DNA from: a virus
Taxonomy: Duplodnaviria > Heunggongvirae > Uroviricota > Caudoviricetes
Length of the DNA stretch: 64,000 bases
IMG/VR virus record: IMGVR_UViG_2671180724_000008
Reading direction: 5' to 3' (one strand)
Both the position numbers and the translations under genes were made by a program. How positions within the stretch are numbered: the stretch's first letter is position 1; every line of letters begins with the position of its first letter. Positions 5,724 through 63,801 of this stretch are shown here, piece after piece. The notes beneath the pieces are model-generated. The model was not told the DNA's origin. It made no database searches and worked only from the letters and a program-made list of their open reading frames with translations.

Positions 5724-8700
5724 ATGTGGTACAGGGAAGGTACTATCACATTTACACAGGGTAGCAATACTCTGGTTGGGGTTGGGACAGCCTGGAACGT
5801 AACAGCTAATGGTGTGTTGCCGGGGATGATCGTCATTGGCCCCGACAATAAGCTGTATGAGATCAAGCGCGTAACAAGCGATACGAATATTGTTCTCTCA
5901 GAACCTTATACCGGCGAAACTCAGTCTGAAGTTCCGTGCCGAATCATTACGACCTATGAAGGCGACTTAACACAGTTTAGCGCGCGCTTTACTGCGCTAA
6001 TGTCGCGTATGTCGGCTGATTCCAAGTCCATGCGCAGTTGGTTGACTGCTCTTGATGAGGTGACAATCGAGCGTGAAGACGGTACAGAAGTTACCGTTAA
6101 GCCGCTGATGCAGATCGTCAACGAGCACAACGAAAACGTTGAGTGGTATAAAAATAACACCGACGCGATTGACGCTGCTGGCGACAAAGCTCGTGAGGCG
6201 GCGGCCAGTGCTGCCGCAGCAGCAGAAAGCGCCAATACCGCTGGAGAAAAAGCCTCTCAAGCGTCTCAAAGTGCATCCGCTGCGGAATCCTCACAAAGTG
6301 CTGCAAGTGCGAGTGCAACTGCTGCGAAAAAATCTGAAACGAACGCAGAATCAGCATATGTCGCGGCAGCAGAATCAGCATCTGTAGCGTCGACTAAAGC
6401 ATCGGAGGCGGCCACATCTGCGTCCAGTGCCTCTGCATCTAAGGATGCGGCTAAAGCATCAGAGGCTAACGCTTCATCGAGTGCAAACGCGGCGGCATCA
6501 TTTGCAACAGAAGCTGAAAATTCGTCTAAGGCAGCAAAAGCGTCAGAGACAAACGCAAAAGCATCTGAAACGGCAGCCGGGCAGAGTGCATCGTCTGCAA
6601 ACAGTTCGAAATCTGCGGCAGAAGCGTCAGCAAGCGCAGCCTCAGCAAGTGCGGATAGTGCTTCATCAAGTGCAACTGCGGCAGGAAAATCTGCGGAAAG
6701 CGCGTCGTCATCAGCGGCAACAGCTACCGCAAAAGCGACTGAGGCGACGAATCAGGCTACAGCCGCTAAAAATTCAGCATCAGCAGCGAAAACCTCTGAA
6801 ACAAATGCAAAGTCTTCAGAAGACAATGCCGCTTCCTCTAAGACTGCGGCTGCTGAATCTGCAAGTTCTGCGTCAGCATCAGCCACCTCGGCGTCTGCTT
6901 CAAAGGATGAGGCGACCAAGCAGGCATCAGCTGCGAAGGGTAGTGCTTCAACGGCATCCACGAAAGCAACAGAGGCGGCAGGCAGTGCGACGGCTGCATC
7001 TCAGAGCAAAACTGCTGCTGAATCCGCTGCGACTCGTGCAGAAGCTGCCGCTGATCGTGCTGAAGAGATTGCCGGTGCAGTTGCGATGGAAGACGCAAGC
7101 CTTACAACTAAAGGTGTTGTGAAACTTAGCAGTGCTGTCGATAGCACCAGCGAATCACTGGCTGCAACTCCAAAGGCAGTTAAAGCTGCGAATGACAATG
7201 CGAATAGCCGATTGGCGAAGAACCAGAATGGTGCTGATATACCAGGTAAGGATACCTTCACGAAAAATATTGGCGCTGGGCGAGCATTTGGAGGCTCTGT
7301 AAGTACAACAGCAGGAAACTGGACTACGGCACAGTTTGTCGAATGGTTGGACTCTCAAGGGGCGTTTAATCATCCGTACTGGATGTGTAAAGGCTCATGG
7401 TCGTATGGCAACAACAAAATCATTACTGATACTGGTTGTGGCAATATTCATCTTGCCGGGGCAGTAATTGAGGTAATGGGGATAAAGTCAGCAATGACGA
7501 TCCGCGTTACCACACCAACAACATCTAGCGGTGGTGGTACTGCTAACGCTCAATTTACTTATATTAACCACGGGACAGATTATTCTCCAGGCTGGCGACG
7601 AGACTACAATACAAAATACAAACCTACGCCATCGGATATAGGTGCATTATCAACATCAGGAGGGACGGTTTCAGGTCCGTTGTCTGTTACTGGTGGATTA
7701 ACTGGTTCATTGAATGGCAATGCGAGTACCGCCACGAAATTGCAGACTGCAAGAACTATCGGCGGCGTGGCCTTCGATGGATCTGCGAACATAAATTTGC
7801 CTGGTGTAAACACGGCAGGTAATCAGAGCACTACTGGTAATGCCGCAACCGCTACAAAACTTCAAACGGCAAGAACGATTGGTGGCGTTTCATTTAACGG
7901 AACTGCCAACATCGACTTGCCCGGAGTTAACAAAGCTGGCAACCAAAGCACCACAGGTAATGCTGCTACAGCTACTAAATTGCAGACAGCAAGAACCATC
8001 GGTGGTGTAAGCTTCGATGGCACTGCGAATATTAATTTGCCTGGTGTTAATGCTGCCGGTAATCAGAACACTACCGGTAACGCGGCCACAGCGACCAAGT
8101 TGCAAACTGCTAGAACTATTAACGGGGTGTCGTTTAACGGCTCTGCGAATATTTCAATACCAACAATTACGTCCAGAGGACGCGTTACTGCGCTCACCGG
8201 TACAACACAAGGTGCTGCGACTGGATTGCAGATGTACGAGGCATATAACAATGGCTACCCTTCGACTTACGGGAATGTGCTTCATCTTAAGGGCGCAACG
8301 GCCGTTGGTGAAGGTGAGTTGTTCATAGGTTGGAGCGGTACAAGTGGTGCTCATGCGCCTGTACATGTACGTTCGCGACGAGATACGGATACATCCAGTT
8401 GGTCTGAATGGGCGCAAGTTTATACGTCCAAAGACTCTATTCCAGGTGTCAATGCCACCGGTAATCAGAACACTACTGGCAACGCAGCCTCTGCAACGAA
8501 GTTGCAGACAGCCAGAACAATTGGAGGTGTGTCGTTTAATGGTACCGCCAATATTAACTTGCCGGGTGTTAATATAGCGGGTAATCAGAATACGACTGGT
8601 AACGCAGCTTCAGCCACGAAGTTACAAACGGCTCGTACCATCGGTGGTGTTAGTTTTAACGGTACAGCCAATATTAACTTACCTGGTGTGAATACGACCG

Positions 8701-13434: not shown

Positions 13435-14103
13435 ATGACCAAGATCTTTGTGGTTGGCGGCACAAAGGGCGGGCCTGGCAAATCCACTGTTGCCCAGCAA
13501 ATTGCCGTTTGCCTGAAAGTCAAAAAGAAGAAGAAGGTTTATATCACTGATATAGATATTCAGCGCACGACAACAAGCTGGTGTGAAGACCGTCGACAGA
13601 ACGAAGACCTTGAGCTGATTCCTTTTGCCTACGTTCAGGATGACATCATTAAGCACCTAAAATCGCTTCAGGGTAGAGCTGAGTTTGTAGTGGTAGATGC
13701 TGGTGGCTTTGACTCCGAAATTCAGCGACAAGCGATGCTGATGGCCGACGTTATCATTATCCCGCTGCGTCCTAAGCGTCGTGATTTGAAATCTCTGCGT
13801 GACATCGATCCTATTATCGACAATGTTCGTAATGTAAACGATAAAGTGAAGGTCCGCGCGGTCATGAACCAGTGCCCGGCTTTGCCATCACAAGTGTCTC
13901 GCATTCTGGCGGCTAAAGAGATTGTCGAGACGTTTGGCATCGAGTCTGCGCCAGTCAATCTATATAACCGCAACGTCTACGATGATGCGGAAGAGTCTGG
14001 TCGTTCTATCTTCGAAATGACCGGTAGCGAGCGCGACAAAAAGGCTGAAGCCGAGTTTGAAGAATTTGTAGATTATCTGTTGAGTCTGGAGGAAGAAGAA
14101 TAA
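13435..14103 (+). CDS. parA: ParA-family partition ATPase
   Basis: 222-aa protein with deviant Walker A GGTKGGPGKST near the N-terminus. Small size is typical of type Ib ParA. Confidence 0.8.
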   Translation: MTKIFVVGGTKGGPGKSTVAQQIAVCLKVKKKKKVYITDIDIQRTTTSWCEDRRQNEDLELIPFAYVQDDIIKHLKSLQGRAEFVVVDAGGFDSEIQRQAMLMADVIIIPLRPKRRDLKSLRDIDPIIDNVRNVNDKVKVRAVMNQCPALPSQVSRILAAKEIVETFGIESAPVNLYNRNVYDDAEESGRSIFEMTGSERDKKAEAEFEEFVDYLLSLEEEE

Positions 14104-14462
14104 TGTCCATGAAAATGGGTGACCTAGCAAAGCGCAAAGAGCCTGATGCACCGGCTAAGAACACAACTCCTTTGCGCCAACCAGTCAGACCACAGGGACG
14201 CCCGACTCGTGGCAAAGAGAAAATTAAGAGCCGCACGATGTCACTGGAGGACGAATACTTCGAACTGCTGGAGATGATGAAGTTCATCCCTCGTTTCGAG
14301 AAATTCACCCGTTCAGACGTGATTCGCGCAGCCATTTTCCATCTGGCAGAGAAGTCACCGCAGGAAATCGAGGACATCGTGAAACTTAACGAGGCGATCA
14401 CAGCTGCCGATGTCACGATGCGTACCGATGAAATCAAACGAGAGTTGATGAAAAAAGGTTAA
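14103..14462 (+). CDS. small ParB/ParG-like centromere-binding protein (putative)
   Basis: 119-aa ORF translationally coupled to parA (ATGA overlap). Basic disordered N-terminus and a C-terminal helical region compatible with a ribbon-helix-helix fold. Confidence 0.45.
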   Translation: MSMKMGDLAKRKEPDAPAKNTTPLRQPVRPQGRPTRGKEKIKSRTMSLEDEYFELLEMMKFIPRFEKFTRSDVIRAAIFHLAEKSPQEIEDIVKLNEAITAADVTMRTDEIKRELMKKG

Positions 14463-15455: not shown

Positions 15456-15555
15456 AAAGACACCACCAGAACAACTCCCTTCCGTTTCCACTTCCAAAAA
15501 CTGCCACCAGTCGCTATCATCCGCCCATTGTGATAAGTAAGTAACTACCTACCAG

Positions 15556-26386: not shown

Positions 26387-27490
26387 ATGAAAAATAGCTT
26401 TGACAGAGCACGCGCTGCGGAGAACACCTCAAAAGAGGCGATTGAGTATCTCGAAAGAGCATCTCAAATGCAGGCCGTTATGATCTCGCAGGTTAGCAAT
26501 GACATGAGATTCTCGGACGCATTCATGTTATTCACTCGCTTATCTCTGCTTATAACCAGACGTCGGCCAGAGATCGCTGTTCATTGTATTTTGATACATG
26601 TTTTGCCGCACATTGCTGATGTAAAAGTAAGTGACATTAATAGGTTCATGGTGAACCAACTGGTAAACCCACTAATACTGGATGGCAAAATTGTTATGGG
26701 CCGCCGCGTTTTCTCTCTGATGAAGCAGTTCCTTAGCTGGTGCGCCTTCCAGGGGATGATAGACGTGTCACCGTTAAACGATATGTCACTAAACAAAGTT
26801 GCCGGTGGCGCAAAGCCCACACCTCGCGAGCGGAAGCTGACCGACGCAGAGGTATGGGTGTTCTGGAATATATGGGACTACTTCAATGTGTGCGCTGGTA
26901 CAAAATGGGCGGCCAGGCTGTGTCTTGTATCAGCAAGACGACCTGACGAAGTACTGCGGGCTAAAAAAAGTGAGTTCAATCTTAAGCGTGGGGTTTGGAA
27001 TCAAGGCAAGAGAAACAAGTCAGCACGTGAGCATTCGCTGCCTTTAAGCACATTAATGCGCACATGCATTGAAGAGTTGTTCGAATACGGTAAAGACAGC
27101 CAGTGGCTCGTGCCTTCGAATAAAAAAATCGGGAAAGACCTTCCTATGTCTAAAGTGGCAATAGCCCAGGCATTACGTCGTATTCTGGAACGACCAGAAC
27201 TGATGGAGCTTGAGCCATTTACACCCCGAGATTTGCGCCGTACTGCGCGTAGTTACTTCCCAGCATTAGGCATAAGCCAGGAGGTATCACGCAAAATCAT
27301 GAACCACAGTCTTGAGGGGATAGATCGGGTCTACGACCGGCACGATTATATGGACGAGATGCGAGACGCCTTAGAAAGTTTCTCGACGTACATCGCATCA
27401 ATCGTAGAGCAACCGGATTTAGACGAAATTGACCACAAATTCAAGGGAGATCGTCTATCAACAGAGCTTATTCGTGTAAATTTTTCATAG
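26387..27490 (+). CDS. tyrosine-type site-specific recombinase (integrase / resolvase family)
   Basis: 367-aa ORF. C-terminal catalytic region carries R..DLRRTARS ... HS ... YDRHDY, consistent with the R-H-R-Y tyrosine recombinase signature. Confidence 0.7.
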   Translation: MKNSFDRARAAENTSKEAIEYLERASQMQAVMISQVSNDMRFSDAFMLFTRLSLLITRRRPEIAVHCILIHVLPHIADVKVSDINRFMVNQLVNPLILDGKIVMGRRVFSLMKQFLSWCAFQGMIDVSPLNDMSLNKVAGGAKPTPRERKLTDAEVWVFWNIWDYFNVCAGTKWAARLCLVSARRPDEVLRAKKSEFNLKRGVWNQGKRNKSAREHSLPLSTLMRTCIEELFEYGKDSQWLVPSNKKIGKDLPMSKVAIAQALRRILERPELMELEPFTPRDLRRTARSYFPALGISQEVSRKIMNHSLEGIDRVYDRHDYMDEMRDALESFSTYIASIVEQPDLDEIDHKFKGDRLSTELIRVNFS

Positions 27491-27871
27491 AGACTTTATG
27501 GCCTCAACAACCTTTTGTGATGCGCCTTTCTCTTTACCGAATCGCTCGTTATATGCAGCAAGAACCTGTTTTTCGTCCTCGTTAAGAGGAGCGGTGCCTT
27601 CTTTGTATAAAAATGCTGCGAGTTCAGGTTGGCGTTCTTCCAGCACCATCATCATAAGACGACTTGGCTCAATACCCAGCGCCAGCGCCAGCGGACGAAC
27701 CTTATCGATAGGCAAAGGAATTTTGCCACTTTTAATTAAAGAAAGGTTGTTGGCATTTTTATAACCAATAAGTCTGGCTATTTGGGCCTGACTCATAGGT
27801 GAGGATTCAATCAGCCCTGCGATAAAAGCAGCATAGCGACTTTCTATAAATTCAATCTTGTTGTCAGACAT
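27485..27871 (-). CDS. XRE-family helix-turn-helix transcriptional regulator (repressor-like)
   Basis: 128-aa minus-strand ORF with HTH segment SQAQIARLIGYKNANNLSLIKSG. Convergent with the recombinase gene and divergent from the operon beginning at 28123. Confidence 0.6.
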   Translation of the reverse strand: MSDNKIEFIESRYAAFIAGLIESSPMSQAQIARLIGYKNANNLSLIKSGKIPLPIDKVRPLALALGIEPSRLMMMVLEERQPELAAFLYKEGTAPLNEDEKQVLAAYNERFGKEKGASQKVVEAIKSL

Positions 27872-44442: not shown

Positions 44443-44487
44443 ATGCAAACTGACTGCGGCTCGTTCCGCAGTCATATTTCATAGTCG

Positions 44488-45022
44488 TCACCGCTGACAG
44501 CATACACAATCAACTACCGCTGATAGCATATCGAGAGTCTATCTTACCGCTCACAGCATACTTTACTCGATTTTTTACCGCTGACAGCATACTTAAGACA
44601 TTGCATGAATAATGTGTACCGGTATGGGTATAACCAGAACAAAATTACCGCTGGCAGCATACGAAGGTCTGACATATACCATTAATTACCGCTGATAGCA
44701 TATCCAAACAAAAATTCCTCAATAAAACACCGCTGACAGCATACGTTCTATCAGGGAGCAGCAGGCAATAAATGCCTTTCACTACAAGCAATCAGCGCAA
44801 TAGCAATAGAATGTTAGTGAGCGCAAACCTATATGGAATGCACTCTTCGAGGTTAGTAACCACTGGGGAGGTATGACAGAGCATTGAGTGGTGATAGATG
44901 ATTTACCGCTCACAGCATACGTTCATCTCACTATACCGCTGGTAGCATATCTTTAACCGTTCACAGCATACTTTTCAGAAAAATAGCCGCTGATAGCATA
45001 CATTTCACCGCTGACAGCATAT
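44488..45022. repeat. iteron array downstream of repA (12 copies, incA-like)
   Basis: Twelve direct repeats with consensus (T)ACCGCTGACAGCATAC at irregular 20-45 bp spacing, in two clusters (7 + 5) separated by about 140 bp. Confidence 0.85.
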
Positions 45023-46116
45023 CAAAGCAGTTTGAGACTATTGGAAAGGATCTCAATCATCTTGATATTTTCAGGCGTCAAATTCTGCGAAAGTTCGGTT
45101 ATCTTGTTGATAATGTTCTGTTTAGCATCAATTTCCCCGGCTTTCTCATCTGGTTTTTTGGGTTCGATGTCTTCAGGTTTTGGCGGTGCGACTTTAAGTT
45201 TTGGATTACGGCTGTGAATCTGGATATAGATCGACCGCCCTCGCTTAATCTCGCTGTATTCGAGATAGCCCAAATCTTGGAGAGCTTTTAAGCCGTTACG
45301 TATAGTCTGATTCTGCGAGCTGACATTCCTGCTACTCAAATTGAGTCGCGCACGCAATCGAGCAAGCGATACCGGCGCAGGCTTGGTTGGAAGACTTTCG
45401 ATGAAGGTGTACAGAGCCTGTGCTGTTTCTTTGCGTGGTAGCTTATTGATAACCTTTAACTGCAAAAGAACCTTATGGTCAAAGCGATATAGTTCGGCCA
45501 GCTTCGGTTCTGCATAGAACACCACCGTATCTTTCTGCTCGTTGTAGTCCACGCTATTGATGAGGTGCACCATCAGAAGCGAGATCTTGTTAGAGCCGTC
45601 GACGTTCTTTTCTTCATACGTTCTCTGGAAAGACAGAGTTGTACGCATGATCTTCAAAAGACTGTTTGTAAGCCGGTCGCGGAGTGTTTTGCGGATCTGT
45701 GACGATGGATAGCCACAAAACTTCGCAAATTTCGTGATGCTTAACTCGACACGACCGTTAGGTTCGCCGTATTCTGCCAGCGAACGCACAACGCCCACCC
45801 ACGTTTTGAAATCATGATCCATGTCGAGACGAGGACCGGTTATCTTGATGTCGGAATAGCCTTCAGAACGGGCTACTTCGAGCTGAACAAGCTCCTTTGA
45901 AGCATCGATTTCATTTGGCTTGTTACGCTTGCTGTATTTTGTCCCCTTGAGCGTGGGCACGAACAACCCCAGCCGCATCAACGCAATTGGTTGGACTGTA
46001 TTGTTGCTATTAGGGACAAGTTCCCCTGTGTACAATTCAAGGGAACCTTCTTCAAAGTTGTCGAGATTATCTTCTACTTCTTTGTTATTTTTACCTTTTT
46101 TATTTTTTGTGGACAT
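45022..46116 (-). CDS. repA: RepA-like iteron-binding plasmid replication initiator
   Basis: Minus-strand ORF flanked on both sides by iterons. Start set at MSTKNKKGKNNK (ATG at 46116-46114) so that the coding region does not overlap the upstream iterons; the track start is 46236. Confidence 0.7.
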   Translation of the reverse strand: MSTKNKKGKNNKEVEDNLDNFEEGSLELYTGELVPNSNNTVQPIALMRLGLFVPTLKGTKYSKRNKPNEIDASKELVQLEVARSEGYSDIKITGPRLDMDHDFKTWVGVVRSLAEYGEPNGRVELSITKFAKFCGYPSSQIRKTLRDRLTNSLLKIMRTTLSFQRTYEEKNVDGSNKISLLMVHLINSVDYNEQKDTVVFYAEPKLAELYRFDHKVLLQLKVINKLPRKETAQALYTFIESLPTKPAPVSLARLRARLNLSSRNVSSQNQTIRNGLKALQDLGYLEYSEIKRGRSIYIQIHSRNPKLKVAPPKPEDIEPKKPDEKAGEIDAKQNIINKITELSQNLTPENIKMIEILSNSLKLL

Positions 46117-46134
46117 GTGGACACCTTTGTCATT

Positions 46135-46237
46135 CAACCGCTGACAGCATACTTGATTTGCCGCTGGCAGCATACAAAAAACAGTTGGCAGCATACGGCG
46201 AACCGTTGACAGACTATCAATTACCGCTGACAGCATA
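46135..46237. repeat. iteron array upstream of repA (5 copies, origin/incC-like)
   Basis: Five copies of the same CCGCTGACAGCATAC-type repeat, two of them degenerate, in the repA promoter region. Confidence 0.8.
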
Positions 46238-46278
46238 CATGAACATGGCTTCAGACCAGTCGTGGCGCGGCTTACAGC

Positions 46279-46351
46279 GATCGGGGATCTTATTTGATCT
46301 ATACAAGGATCTATCTATGGATCTCTTTATTAGGATCTATCCTGTGGATAT
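46279..46351. promoter_or_regulatory. origin-associated GATC cluster with DnaA-box-like sequence
   Basis: Six GATC sites within about 60 bp (46279-46337), followed by tgtggatat (reverse complement atatccaca, 8/9 match to the DnaA box TTATCCACA), adjacent to the iterons. Confidence 0.65.
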
Positions 46352-46437
46352 GTGAATAATTAAAACAGGCATTTACTACCTTCGGCGCACCTGGTGGGTT
46401 ATCGTTGCCTCGGCTAACAATCACAGAAAAATGACAT

Positions 46438-48651: not shown

Positions 48652-50568
48652 ATGAAGTTTTTAAAGCTCCAGGTTGAGAATTTTATGGCTATCGCCAGCG
48701 CGGAGGTCGAGTTAGATCAGCGTGGTTTAGTGCTAATTCAGGGCGTTAATAGTGATGATAGTTCCGCATCAAGTAATGGCTCTGGAAAGTCAACTCTAAT
48801 GAATAGCCTGATGTGGTGTCTTTATGGCGAAACAGCTCATGGTGTGAAGGGTGACGATGTGTTGTCTACCGACCATGAAAAGAACTGTCGTGTTGCAGTA
48901 ACCATCGAGGATGAAGGCAAGAGATATGCGATCATTCGTCACCGTAAACACAAAGAGTTCAAAAATCGTCTTATCGTTCGTGGTGAAGATGGCGATATGA
49001 CGAAAGGCAAAGATGCGCTGACGCAGGAGTTCGTCGAGCGTCTGATCGGTGCATCTAAAGAGGTTTTCATGGCTTCCATCTATGCGAGCCAAGAAGCTAT
49101 GCCAGATTTACCTGGAATGTCCGACAAAAACCTCAAAACCATCGTAGAAGAAGCCGCTGGCGTTGACAGACTGACACGCGCCTACGCTATTGCTCGTGAG
49201 CGAGCTAATGCAGCTGCCGCACGTATGGATGTGGTTAAAACCAAATTGGAGTCGACAATCTCGACCATTGAGGCAACACAGTCAGAAATTGAGTCCGCGA
49301 AAGCCTCCTCTGAATCATGGGAACAAGAGCGTTCTAAACGTTATGACGATGCCTTGGCTGGGCTGGCAAGTGCCGAAGTTGAGTTAACGGAAGTTGAACT
49401 TGAGATCCGCACTCTTCCCGAACAGATCCGTGATACCGAGAAGGCAATCGAAAGTGAGCGCAAAAAGTTAGCCTCAAAAGAAGAACATGACGCCAAGTTG
49501 CTCAAAGTGCGTGGTGCGATAACTGATATTCGGGCAAGCATCAAAGCTACAGAAAATAGTCAGGCTGATGCAATGAGCCGCGCGCGCAATTTTAAGACTA
49601 AAGCAGAAGAGGTTGGTACTAAAGTGGGATCGCCATGCCCTACTTGTGGCAAAGCCTACTGCGAAGAAGATCTATCAACGGTGAAGGAGAATTTCATTGA
49701 ACAAGCACGTCAGGAAATTGGTCAGGCGAAGACACTTGCAGAGGCAATGGCTAAACACAAAACGAATCTTGAGAAAGCGTTAAGCATTGAGTCTGCCCTT
49801 GTTAAAACGACACCTGATGTAACGGCTATCATTGCACGGATTGAAGAGCTTACTAAACAACTCTCATCTTTGCGTCATCGTGAGAAGGAGGTTGTTGCTA
49901 TTGAGTCTCTTGTTACTCGTGCTCGTGCAGAGGTAGATCGTATCTCAAAAGAGGTTAATCCGTTTATTGCACTTATCGCCAGACACGAAGATAACCTGGC
50001 ATCCAGTAAGTCTACCTTCAAGTCCTTAAAAGATGAGTTGAAGGCTATTCAGGAACAAACGTTGCTATTGGAAAAAGCTCGTCAGGTCTACTCTCCTGCC
50101 GGGGTGCGTTCTCATATTTTGACGTCTGTTACGCCTTTCCTGAATACACGTACAGCTGAGTATCTCAATACGTTGTCTGACGGGAATATTACTGCTGAGT
50201 GGTCGACGATGGATGTCACTAAAAAAGGTGAGTATCGCGACAAATTCAACATTAGTGTGCAGAAGAAAGGTTCAAGTAAGTCGTTCCAGACCCTCTCTGG
50301 TGGTGAGAAGCGGAAGGTTCGCATTGCGTGTTCTTTGGCATTGCAGGATCTGGTTAGTAACCGGGCGAGTAAAAACATCGATTTGTTTATCGGCGACGAA
50401 ATTGACGATGCACTCGATACAGCCGGTCTTGAACGCCTCATGGGTATTCTGGAGTCCAAAGCTCGCGAGCGAGGTACTGTGCTGATTATCTCCCATAAAG
50501 AGATGAAGTCATGGTTCCGGGAAACTATTACGCTGGAAGTTAAAGAGGGGCGCAGCTATGTCGTTTAA
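48652..50568 (+). CDS. SbcC/Rad50-like ATPase
   Basis: 638-aa ORF. N-terminal Walker A NGSGKST, central coiled coil with CPTCGK zinc hook, C-terminal signature LSGGEKRK and Walker B LFIGDEID. Confidence 0.65.
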   Translation: MKFLKLQVENFMAIASAEVELDQRGLVLIQGVNSDDSSASSNGSGKSTLMNSLMWCLYGETAHGVKGDDVLSTDHEKNCRVAVTIEDEGKRYAIIRHRKHKEFKNRLIVRGEDGDMTKGKDALTQEFVERLIGASKEVFMASIYASQEAMPDLPGMSDKNLKTIVEEAAGVDRLTRAYAIARERANAAAARMDVVKTKLESTISTIEATQSEIESAKASSESWEQERSKRYDDALAGLASAEVELTEVELEIRTLPEQIRDTEKAIESERKKLASKEEHDAKLLKVRGAITDIRASIKATENSQADAMSRARNFKTKAEEVGTKVGSPCPTCGKAYCEEDLSTVKENFIEQARQEIGQAKTLAEAMAKHKTNLEKALSIESALVKTTPDVTAIIARIEELTKQLSSLRHREKEVVAIESLVTRARAEVDRISKEVNPFIALIARHEDNLASSKSTFKSLKDELKAIQEQTLLLEKARQVYSPAGVRSHILTSVTPFLNTRTAEYLNTLSDGNITAEWSTMDVTKKGEYRDKFNISVQKKGSSKSFQTLSGGEKRKVRIACSLALQDLVSNRASKNIDLFIGDEIDDALDTAGLERLMGILESKARERGTVLIISHKEMKSWFRETITLEVKEGRSYVV

Positions 50569-61470: not shown

Positions 61471-62064
61471 ATGATTGCAGCCGAAAAAATCAAACAGCGA
61501 AAGCGCGACAACTCTCTTCGTGACCTCTGGAGAACACCTGATTGGCTGTTTTCTGCCATTCAACGTTATCTTGGAGTGACATTTGATGTTGACGTTGCCT
61601 GCAACAAGGACAATGCAAAGCTGCCTAATTTCATAGGCATTGAGCGTGATGCTTTGAAATCTGAATGGGGACAGCCAGGTACAATTGCCTTCCTCAATCC
61701 ACCCTACTCCAAAATCTCCCCCTGGATTGATGCGGCTATACGTGAGCAGGCTCGCGGAGTTACAACAGTGATGCTAATTCCTCAATCCCTCGATACAAAG
61801 TGGTATGAGCGTGCAACAGAGTATGCGAATGAGACGATTATTCTGTCTGGTGGCCGCGTAGCGTTTGTCGAGCCTGACGTCAATTTGGGTCAGGTAGAAG
61901 TAAACATCAACCCCGGTGGCAGTATGCTCGTTGTTTTTCGAGGATTCTGTCAGGACGCTGGGCACTCTATAAGCAAGATCCCTTTGGACGTCATGAAAAG
62001 TCTGGGAGGGTATGATCCTGCGAATGTGGTCAGGAAAAAAAGACCATCAAAGAAGGCTGCTTAG
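61471..62064 (+). CDS. phage-type DNA N6-adenine methyltransferase (Dam-like)
   Basis: 197-aa ORF with catalytic NPPY motif (AFLNPPYS); small size is typical of the phage Dam family. Confidence 0.6.
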   Translation: MIAAEKIKQRKRDNSLRDLWRTPDWLFSAIQRYLGVTFDVDVACNKDNAKLPNFIGIERDALKSEWGQPGTIAFLNPPYSKISPWIDAAIREQARGVTTVMLIPQSLDTKWYERATEYANETIILSGGRVAFVEPDVNLGQVEVNINPGGSMLVVFRGFCQDAGHSISKIPLDVMKSLGGYDPANVVRKKRPSKKAA

Positions 62065-63653: not shown

Positions 63654-63801
63654 TAAGTAAGTATTTACCTATTATTTTAAATCATGTATCTTATCGGCGT
63701 CAGGATGACAATGTGTCGGTAAGACACAGTTCCAGGATGGAACGAGAAAGGCGGCTGGCAATCGCCAGCCGCAACTCTTTCTGACACTGGATGGAGTCCA
63801 C

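Follow-up and report, generated by a model that had tools for sequence, protein, structure and literature searches.

The region 44451-46359 is very probably the replicon that maintains an SSU5-supergroup phage-plasmid as a plasmid prophage, and its sequence makes it a homologue of both the P1 R replicon and RepFIB. It lies in a window of 64,000 nucleotides, by which we mean the whole stretch of DNA analysed. Since the literature types SSU5-supergroup phage-plasmids as IncFIB (PMC7969092; bioRxiv 10.1101/2025.09.12.675607), the kind of replicon is already known; it is present in hundreds of sequenced plasmids, and its family is equally well named RepFIB/IncFIB. By analogy, the replicon would be autonomous, low in copy number and dependent on Dam, DnaA and chaperones. 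Its parts, and two other loci of the element that bear on them, are as follows.

44451-44474, both strands: bidirectional terminator-like hairpin with a 9-bp stem, found by terminator scan after the upstream plus-strand operon; left edge of the cassette
44491-44743, plus: seven distal control iterons, incA-like (starts 44491, 44517, 44547, 44578, 44648, 44689, 44730)
44744-44905: iteron-free gap of 162 bp dividing the control array
44811-44872, plus: non-iteron element of about 60 bp with two GTTAGTrA sites 39-40 bp apart, the second being AGGTTAGTAACCACTGGGGA
44906-45021, plus: five proximal control iterons (starts 44906, 44936, 44957, 44987, 45008)
45022-46116, minus: repA, 364-aa initiator of P1/RepFIB type, predicted to bind iterons (Pfam, PHROG, BLASTP)
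46108-46124, minus: repA-proximal tandem DnaA-box-like 9-mers, ATGTCCACA and GTGTCCACA (7/9 each), overlapping the repA start codon
46138-46237, plus: five origin iterons, incC-like (starts 46138, 46161, 46182, 46203, 46224; spacing 23/21/21/21 bp)
46238-46278: GC-rich spacer (59% GC) containing CCAGtCGTGGCGCGGC, conserved in P1
46279-46342: GATC-heptamer region (64% AT) with six Dam sites (46279, 46286, 46296, 46308, 46320, 46334)
46343-46359, minus: tandem DnaA boxes with a one-base overlap, ATATCCACA and TTATTCACA on the repA-sense strand, aligned with the tandem DnaA site annotated in P1
13435-14462, plus: partition candidates about 30 kb from the replicon, a ParA-like ATPase (13435-14103, 222 aa) and a 117-aa partner (14109-14462)
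61471-62064, plus: Dam-family N6-adenine methyltransferase (Pfam PF05869, Dam, E 5.4e-38)

The host element

The window shares 98.5% identity with Escherichia phage PhiR41_1, and 99% with many plasmids of E. coli, Shigella and E. albertii; its flanks match phage Cyrano at 98% and 91%, and SSU5 at 76%. By sequence it is an E. coli phage-plasmid of the SSU5 supergroup, an SSU5-like siphovirus. An earlier note, made from the letters of the window, had proposed a phage maintained as a plasmid, which the identity to PhiR41_1 and the presence of tail, replisome and ParA-like genes bear out. These elements are extrachromosomal (PMC9600943), and the related phage-plasmid Cyrano is kept at about 5.5 copies per cell (PMC9928086). 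In the control region, the window is 99.4% identical to the 111,741-bp ST131 plasmid p7.2.1, which equals pECOH89 in length.

Among the genes of the window we find a tail protein and fibre, DnaE, a DnaB-like helicase, primase, ligase, NrdAB, Dam, a gp32-like SSB and a 5'-3' exonuclease. As the element carries its own replisome (DnaE, helicase, primase and ligase), lytic growth must use a second origin, and we assume a division of labour between the plasmid origin and the lytic one. The Dam-family methyltransferase, for its part, could methylate the GATC sites of the origin.

ParA/ParB-like genes had been listed in the same note. The small ParA stands (Pfam MipZ/CbiA/ParA; PHROG 164, 'ParA-like partition protein', E 4e-51), whereas its partner, of unassigned family, matches only phrog_5111, of unassigned function; the pair is neither P1-like nor adjacent to the replicon.

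Iterons, initiator and origin core

Searching the whole window for CCGCTGACAGCATA with up to three mismatches, we obtained 21 matches, against 4.6 expected and a count that no shuffle reached. Seventeen lie inside 44491-46237, all on the plus strand: 12 downstream and five upstream of the minus-strand repA, as read earlier by eye of a model from the letters. With its conserved flanks the unit is A-CCGCTGACAGCATA-Y, the same 16 bp as the consensus given then. What needs correcting is the downstream array, which is bipartite, with seven and five iterons on either side of the 162-bp gap. All 12 of these copies are direct, and the last proximal one (45008) abuts the repA stop codon. A possible decayed copy is seen near 44620, within the distal block.

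Conservation footprints the iterons, whose cores are 92% identical across four genera as against 69% for the spacers. Among 44 complete cassettes from IMG/VR and other databases, 41 hold five origin iterons spaced 21/21/21/23 bp, and in the remaining three the weakest origin iteron exceeds the three-mismatch threshold; all 44 have 8-12 direct control iterons. A comparable gap in the control array is found in relatives from Salmonella and Cronobacter (174-192 bp start-to-start), and in PhiR41_1 an 87-bp iteron-to-iteron deletion has removed three distal copies.

The five upstream iterons had also been placed in the repA promoter. The iterons are there, but a consensus scan of the minus strand over 46117-46260 found no canonical sigma-70 promoter among them; from the P1 annotation, we presume that the promoter lies within them. 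An inverted iteron-like sequence inside repA (45761-45783; 18/19 complementary to the origin) is unconserved at the synonymous sites of the Klebsiella homologue, and is therefore probably due to chance or specific to the lineage.

That repA encodes a Rep initiator, also claimed from the open reading frame, agrees with the profile searches: the product matches Pfam Rep3_N (WH1) above the gathering cut-off (E 3.9e-9) and PHROG 775 (E 4.6e-133). BLASTP aligns it with P1 RepA over 278 aa at 46% identity (E 4e-86), tblastn retrieves P1, P7 and RepFIB, and residues 24-309 are about 50% identical to RepFIB RepA, found in at least 5000 plasmid records. Rep3_C (WH2) is weakly detected at the expected position (E 0.13); P1 RepA itself scores 5.7e-4 against this profile, just below the cut-off. 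Sequence and profile searches of the PDB gave no relative of solved structure, an NCBIfam search gave no match, and the single-sequence AlphaFold model was unusable (pLDDT 39.7). Comparison with relatives from three other genera shows strong purifying selection on the coding sequence (dN/dS 0.02-0.05, with synonymous sites saturated).

We place the repA start at 46116, where a conserved ATG has a Shine-Dalgarno sequence, AAAGGTG, and aligns with the N-termini of homologues. The longer RefSeq version (404 aa, start 46236) was rejected because its extra 40 aa would be translated through the five origin iterons.

The six GATC sites, noticed before as falling within 60 bp, occupy 59 bp (46279-46337); nowhere else in the window do more than two fall within 60 bp, and only 1 of 2000 random placements reached six (p ~5e-4). 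An independent TRF analysis finds GATC repeated with a 12-bp period over 46296-46341. This AT-rich region is presumably where the origin unwinds and is sequestered by SeqA.

The DnaA-box-like 9-mer pointed out beside it is indeed present: TGTGGATAT, at 46343-46351, agrees with TGTGGATAA at 8/9 positions. A second box that had been overlooked, TGTGAATAA at 46351-46359, overlaps it and also matches at 8/9. Taken alone, such matches are no commoner in the window than chance predicts (8 against 7.8), and what gives the boxes weight is their homology in position with the P1 tandem boxes. At the other end of the origin, TRF reports TGTGGACA twice at the repA-proximal site, and P1 has CTATCCACA at the equivalent end; these 9-mers are possibly the counterpart of the repA-proximal DnaA box of P1, at a site confounded by coding and Shine-Dalgarno constraints.

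From the P1 and RepFIB literature, the following scheme can be proposed. RepA monomers would occupy the five origin iterons, which are spaced at two turns of the helix, while host DnaA would recognise the tandem boxes on the outer side and possibly sites on the repA-proximal side too. Together they would open the adjacent AT-rich GATC-heptamer region and allow DnaB to be loaded. The GATC sites would need Dam methylation, and SeqA would sequester the hemimethylated origin after firing. By binding the iterons embedded in the promoter, RepA would repress its own gene; the 12 downstream iterons would titrate RepA and pair with the origin iterons ('handcuffing'), resulting in low copy number and incompatibility. 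DnaK, DnaJ and GrpE would turn RepA dimers into active monomers.

To the P1/RepFIB paradigm this adds nothing conceptually new. It does show where very common phage-plasmids of E. coli, Shigella and Klebsiella, some of which carry CTX-M-15 and other resistance genes, have their maintenance origin and copy-control locus, and what probably determines their incompatibility. The exact iteron arrays are useful for replicon typing, help to mend annotation (over-extended repA starts, iterons mislabelled as att sites) and allow iteron-based curing cassettes, for which FIB replicons provide the precedent. Beyond the paradigm, interest attaches to the clean exchange of cassettes, to the C-terminal RepA tail and to the conserved non-iteron element that lies among the control iterons.

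Known relatives and other readings of the locus

The likeness to P1, drawn first from the architecture, extends to the DNA itself. Order and orientation are those of the annotated P1 R replicon: incA control iterons, repA, five incC iterons, GATC/Dam sites, DnaA site. From GC-rich spacer through GATC heptamers to tandem DnaA boxes, the core aligns base-for-base with P1 oriR; a Klebsiella phage-plasmid and SSU5 can be added to the alignment. Both origins have five iterons phased by two turns, spaced 23/21/21/21 bp here and 22/21/21/21 in P1, where PrepA lies inside them; both control arrays show spacings of 30, 31 and 41 bp. Like the window element, P1 lysogenises in plasmid form and encodes its own Dam-type methylase.

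There are differences too. The iteron is TATGCTGTCAGCGGT here and GATGTGTGCTGGAGGGAAA in P1. There are 12 control iterons, all direct, against nine in P1 (three direct and six inverted), so the geometry of looping may differ. A gap interrupts the array and contains a conserved non-iteron element not present in P1, the six GATC sites are intact where P1 has five annotated Dam sites and one degenerate GACC, and RepA ends in a 55-aa tail (residues ~310-364) absent from P1 RepA. The P1 parA gene begins about 270 bp away from incA; here the neighbours of the replicon are small genes of unassigned function, no type Ia parA-parB-parS operon was found adjoining the control array, and the sole ParA-like gene is the distant one. 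Virion and backbone are unrelated to those of P1.

P1 also helps to judge whether the module serves mainly lytic or early phage replication instead of being a plasmid origin under copy control. Such a role, which we consider very unlikely, would suit its position amid phage DNA-metabolism genes and the fact that the lytic origin is unlocated. But the homologous replicon of P1 is its plasmid replicon, lytic replication proceeding from a separate oriL/repL, and a large array titrating RepA together with promoter-embedded iterons would be hallmarks of negative copy control. An exchange of the incompatibility type between near-identical backbones, described below, likewise fits plasmid maintenance.

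RepFIB (F, P307, pO157) shares, besides the similar RepA, origin iterons upstream and control iterons downstream of repA, and the classical IncFIB replicon has the same order of DnaA box, five GATC sites, spacer, iterons and repA. Tools for plasmid typing assign rep genes of the SSU5 type to IncFIB. The downstream FIB iterons are the incompatibility and control determinant, acting on the upstream ones (PMC11983097). RepFIB differs in its ATAAACTGTAGT-type iterons, in control iterons of mixed orientation and in its host, a conjugative F-type plasmid rather than a phage.

The F plasmid offers a precedent for a further reading, in which the RepA-iteron module is vestigial or silent and maintenance proceeds from another origin through the replisome genes of the element: F has a weakly expressed FIB replicon (PMC11983097), and the window encodes DnaE, helicase, primase, ligase, SSB and exonuclease. 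We regard this as highly improbable. It sits badly with the purifying selection on repA and the footprinted iterons, whose number and phasing are constant in the 41 of 44 cassettes, across four genera, with the other three missing the weakest copy at threshold. Moreover, no other plasmid-type Rep gene was seen among the open reading frames examined in the window, and PLSDB types these plasmids by the replicon rep_cluster_488 alone.

Klebsiella elements of the pKPHS1 type (Inc-pKPHS1; phage pJN2-26) are close relatives in another genus, with a RepA 85% identical, the same iteron sequence and five identically phased origin iterons; they have 8-9 control iterons. In its published description, this type has just four iterons downstream and lacks a Rep domain that could be recognised (PMC6735626). 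The pJN2-26 record labels 20-bp repeats flanking repA as attL and attR, but the idea that the repeats are attachment sites, or a CRISPR-like or transposon-end array, can be practically dismissed: there are seventeen copies, not two, phased by 21 bp, bracketing a Rep_3/P1-RepA homologue and adjoining a P1-oriR-like core, in elements known to be extrachromosomal (PMC9600943).

Cassette exchange and a conserved element in the control array

Two details are new: an exchange of cassettes at 44460-46249 and a conserved element of about 60 bp within the control array. Compared with Cyrano, the DNA is 98.3% identical up to 44459 and 91.2% identical from 46250, with only patches of 65-76% between. Judged by this alignment, iterons and repA (44460-46249) are a swapped 1.8-kb specificity cassette: Cyrano has the same backbone and a different iteron-repA cassette, and the origin core is common to both. 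The cassette thus sits between the terminator and the host-factor origin core that it shares with the SSU5/Cyrano type.

The SSU5/pLF82 (Cyrano) cassette occupies the same locus in a near-identical backbone and has the same origin core, the RepA C-terminal tail and a GTTAGT element downstream of repA. It differs in its iterons, TATCCACTGTAG, in distal control iterons that are mostly inverted, in the opposite orientation of the GTTAGT element relative to repA, and in RepA itself, 48% identical. The exact figure against pLF82/Cyrano RepA is 47.9%, in keeping with the 48% similarity reported between the RepA proteins of pECOH89 and pLF82 (PMC3999498). Together with the match to p7.2.1, this is indirect evidence that the window may carry the IncFIB(H89-PhagePlasmid) rep allele, the pECOH89 type.

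The GTTAGT element is kept in E. coli, Salmonella, Cronobacter, Klebsiella, SSU5 and Cyrano, whereas its flanks are not, and its second site invariantly reads AGGTTAGTrryCACTGGG. We did not find it in P1 or in one classical IncFIB replicon.

Several identities were tried for it and rejected. An Rfam search of the iteron-free gap gave no match, and RNAalifold on four genera and both strands returned weak energy and no compensatory pairs, which speaks against an RNA. A copy of the recurrent intergenic palindrome TAAGTA-N2-TACTTA is not supported as a description: with a PWM built from 13 sites, the sites in the gap score 3.1 and -6.3 bits, compared to at least 14 for true sites. Nor does it resemble an operator of the par operon, there being no similar site upstream of parA. 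A second GGTTAGTAACC, at 50352, lies within a coding region, has no extended similarity and was set aside as a coincidence.

It is conceivable, if on balance doubtful, that the element binds a factor other than RepA, of host or phage-plasmid origin, and adds an undescribed layer of control, alongside an exchange of the 1.8-kb cassette on a shared DnaA/GATC core that switches incompatibility specificity. If so, this factor could, for instance, couple copy control or handcuffing to the lysis-lysogeny state.

Of the 66 IMG/VR contigs with the element, 64 carry it immediately downstream of a repA from this family, and in H89-type and SSU5-type cassettes alike it is found in or beside the copy-control array: mid-array here, at the distal array edge in the Klebsiella pKPHS1 type.

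Iteron arrays and the RepA initiator

A search of the whole window for CCGCTGACAGCATA, allowing up to three mismatches, gave 21 matches against 4.6 expected, a number that none of the shuffles attained. Seventeen of these, all on the + strand, fall within 44491-46237, on both sides of the minus-strand ORF 45022-46116 (repA): 12 downstream and five upstream, as an earlier note had counted them. That note also placed six GATC sites and a DnaA-box-like sequence beside the upstream set; both are present, so its description is right in every countable respect. The ORF itself, which it took for a Rep initiator, encodes a 364-aa protein matching Pfam Rep3_N (WH1) above the gathering score (E 3.9e-9) and PHROG 775 (E 4.6e-133).

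Features of the replicon (window positions)
44491-44743, + strand: distal control iterons, seven copies, downstream of repA
44744-44905: iteron-free gap of 162 bp, splitting the 12 control iterons into 7 + 5
44906-45021, + strand: proximal control iterons, five copies, downstream of repA
45022-46116, minus strand: repA
46138-46237, + strand: origin iterons, five copies upstream of repA, spacing 23/21/21/21 bp
46279-46337: six GATC (Dam) sites
46343-46351: DnaA box TGTGGATAT
46351-46359: second DnaA-type box TGTGAATAA, overlapping TGTGGATAT by one base

RepA shares 46% identity with P1 RepA across 278 residues (E 4e-86), about 50% with the RepFIB RepA proteins of at least 5000 plasmid records, and 48% with RepA of SSU5 and Cyrano; the name 'replication helicase', attached to both P1 RepA and PHROG 775, is misleading. 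Against the Salmonella, Cronobacter and Klebsiella homologues, synonymous sites are saturated (pS 0.66-0.80) and dN/dS is 0.02-0.05, values that indicate strong purifying selection on repA. Residues 310-364 (window 45022-45186) form a 55-aa C-terminal tail that is absent from P1 RepA: a Pro/Glu/Lys-rich linker, then two predicted helices. Its end, ...(L/M)IEIL(S/T)NSLKLL, is nearly invariant in E. coli, Salmonella, Cronobacter and Klebsiella; SSU5 RepA has an analogous tail of other sequence.

AAAGGTG precedes the ATG at 46116, a start that in alignment agrees with the N-termini of homologues. The 404-aa RefSeq/PGAP model starting at 46236 (window 45022-46236; 6823-8037 in database record L001) reads through all five origin iterons and is very probably over-extended; these records are apparently mis-annotated. 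Two further apparent mis-annotations concern the iterons: in Klebsiella phage pJN2-26 two of them are labelled attL and attR (L007 1378-1397 and 2648-2667), and in Escherichia phage PhiR41_1 a 38-aa CDS is annotated within the array (L002 6273-6389).

Among 44 complete cassettes from IMG/VR and databases, 41 have an origin array of five iterons spaced 21/21/21/23 bp; the remaining three have their weakest origin iteron beyond the mismatch threshold. Control iterons number 8-12 in all 44, every one direct. Across four genera the number and spacing of the origin iterons are constant, and the 14-bp cores of this array are 92% identical versus 69% for its spacers. Such conservation of cores, number and spacing, beside saturated synonymous sites, is evidence that these non-coding parts are functional. 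The control copy number is polymorphic: PhiR41_1 is without three of the distal copies (window 44491-44577) through an 87-bp iteron-to-iteron deletion. An inverted iteron-like sequence within repA (45761-45783), complementary at 18 of 19 bases to origin positions 46186-46204, is probably fortuitous, since its synonymous sites are not kept in the Klebsiella homologue.

Origin core and its relation to P1 and IncFIB

Elsewhere in the window there are at most two GATC sites per 60 bp, and six were reached in one of 2000 random placements; TRF independently detected a 12-bp periodic GATC repeat. The GATC-heptamer region is 64% AT. A perfect tandem of two TGTGGACA copies (46108-46124) lies across the repA start codon and holds, on the repA-sense strand, two DnaA-box-like 9-mers, each matching at 7 of 9 positions. 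Relatives conserve this tandem in part, and in P1 the corresponding end of oriR bears a DnaA box. A consensus scan found no repA promoter among the origin iterons. The window also carries a gene for a Dam-family N6-adenine methyltransferase (61471-62064; PF05869, E 5e-38), a predicted enzyme that could maintain methylation of the origin GATC cluster without relying on the host.

The earlier note had recognised the architecture of the P1 R replicon. The annotated P1 record, with nine incA iterons, repA, five incC iterons, five Dam sites and a tandem DnaA site, indeed has the same order and orientation of elements, and the DNA beyond the window's origin iterons aligns with P1 oriR, conserving CCAG.CGTGGCGCGGC, the GGATCT heptamers and ..GTGGATAaTGTGgATAA. 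A Klebsiella phage-plasmid and SSU5 share this conserved core, and in a classical IncFIB replicon the DnaA box, five GATC sites, spacer, iterons and repA follow one another in the window's order. As judged from these sequences, the likeness to P1 and IncFIB is homology, beyond resemblance. The observation stands confirmed and its interpretation supported. The replicon differs from P1 in several respects: the iteron sequences are unlike, the 12 control iterons are all direct whereas three of P1's nine are direct and six inverted, the six GATC sites are all intact whereas P1 has five plus one GACC, and no P1-type par operon adjoins the replicon. The P1 incC iterons are spaced 22/21/21/21, with PrepA inside.

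Following the P1 and RepFIB literature, RepA monomers would fill the five phased origin iterons, DnaA would bind the tandem boxes, and the AT-rich GATC-heptamer region would open for helicase loading. Dam methylation would be needed, and hemimethylation after firing would permit SeqA sequestration, which the 10-14 bp spacing between GATC sites suits. RepA bound to promoter-proximal iterons would repress its own gene, and its activation is expected from the DnaK, DnaJ and GrpE chaperones. The downstream array would titrate RepA and handcuff the origin, leading to low copy number and incompatibility; a recent dissection of FIB replicons agrees with this role (PMC11983097).

Cassette exchange and a conserved element in the gap

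Phage Cyrano (pLF82) shares the backbone of this element. Identity with it is 98.3% as far as 44459, within the terminator hairpin 44451-44474, and 91.2% from 46250 onward, beginning at a GC-rich spacer. Between them, 44460-46249, holding repA and all 17 iterons, shows merely short patches of 65-76%. These sharp boundaries show that the specificity module has been swapped as a unit, with the host-factor half of the origin (GATC/DnaA core) common to both. A published remark on pECOH89 matches the exchange: its RepA has 48% similarity to the pLF82 protein, the two plasmids being near-identical elsewhere (PMC3999498).

The gap of the control array holds a non-iteron block, about 60 bp long (44811-44872), that E. 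coli, Salmonella, Cronobacter and Klebsiella all retain, as do the cassettes of SSU5 and Cyrano with their other iterons; the gap sequence around it is not conserved. Two GTTAGTrA sites lie in the block at a distance of 39-40 bp, the second invariantly AGGTTAGTrryCACTGGG (AGGTTAGTAACCACTGGGGA in the window). A total of 66 IMG/VR contigs carry this second site, and 64 of these have the element some 160-370 bp downstream of a P1/RepFIB-type repA; the other two are cut off at the contig end. The element is antiparallel to repA in H89-type cassettes (55 contigs) and parallel in the SSU5 type (9 contigs). Neither the P1 region nor a classical IncFIB replicon was found to have it. It is no recognisable RNA and not a good match to the intergenic palindrome described below.

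The phage-plasmid carrying the replicon

The element is an SSU5-supergroup phage-plasmid. The region is 98.5% identical to PhiR41_1. At 99% identity it also matches many non-mobilizable plasmids, roughly 100-114 kb in size, of E. coli, Shigella and E. albertii; these carry the annotation 'RepB family plasmid replication initiator' and the type rep_cluster_488. The supergroup has been typed IncFIB (PMC7969092; bioRxiv 10.1101/2025.09.12.675607), its members are inducible and packaged (PMC9600943), and the relative Cyrano is kept at about 5.5 copies per cell (PMC9928086). The window encodes phage structural proteins (tail protein, tail fibre), replication proteins (DnaE, DnaB-like helicase, primase, ligase, gp32-like SSB, 5'-3' exonuclease), and SbcCD-like, NrdAB, ThyA, Dam-family methylase and tyrosine recombinase proteins.

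The replicon is a known kind in a known phage-plasmid family, present nearly identically in more than 100 database records. The sole iteron description found, for the Klebsiella pKPHS1 group, counts four iterons downstream and gives no Rep domain (PMC6735626); the map given here has annotation value because the published anatomy of this allele appears incomplete.

Other features of the element (window positions)
13435-14462: partition candidates some 30 kb away from the replicon, a 222-aa ParA of MipZ/CbiA type and a 117-aa partner that has no known domain
26387-27490: tyrosine recombinase, 367 aa, Phage_integrase family
27485-27871, minus strand: 128-aa gene, overlapping the recombinase gene by a few bases
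5662, 10450, 15534-15552, 18971, 22490, 30561, 36144, 39662, 43372, 47206, 56606, 61441, 63654-63672: palindrome sites

Of the ParA/ParB-like genes that had also been claimed, there is the small ParA-like ATPase with its 117-aa partner; no ParB-domain protein was found among the ORFs scanned. Cre resolves multimers in P1, and the tyrosine recombinase may do so here in Cre-like fashion rather than act as an integrase, the element being extrachromosomal. The overlapping 128-aa gene is called a 'transcriptional regulator' in the annotation of a related plasmid.

The intergenic palindrome TAAGTA-N2-TACTTA(C/T), of which no description was found in the literature searched, recurs: its pattern matches 24 times, where 0.38 matches are expected. 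The majority of sites are no more than about 60 nt upstream of a + strand gene start, and a few are 116-372 nt or farther away; variants occur in Cyrano, SSU5, Klebsiella and Salmonella loci. The palindrome has the look of an operator or promoter motif dispersed over the phage-plasmid.
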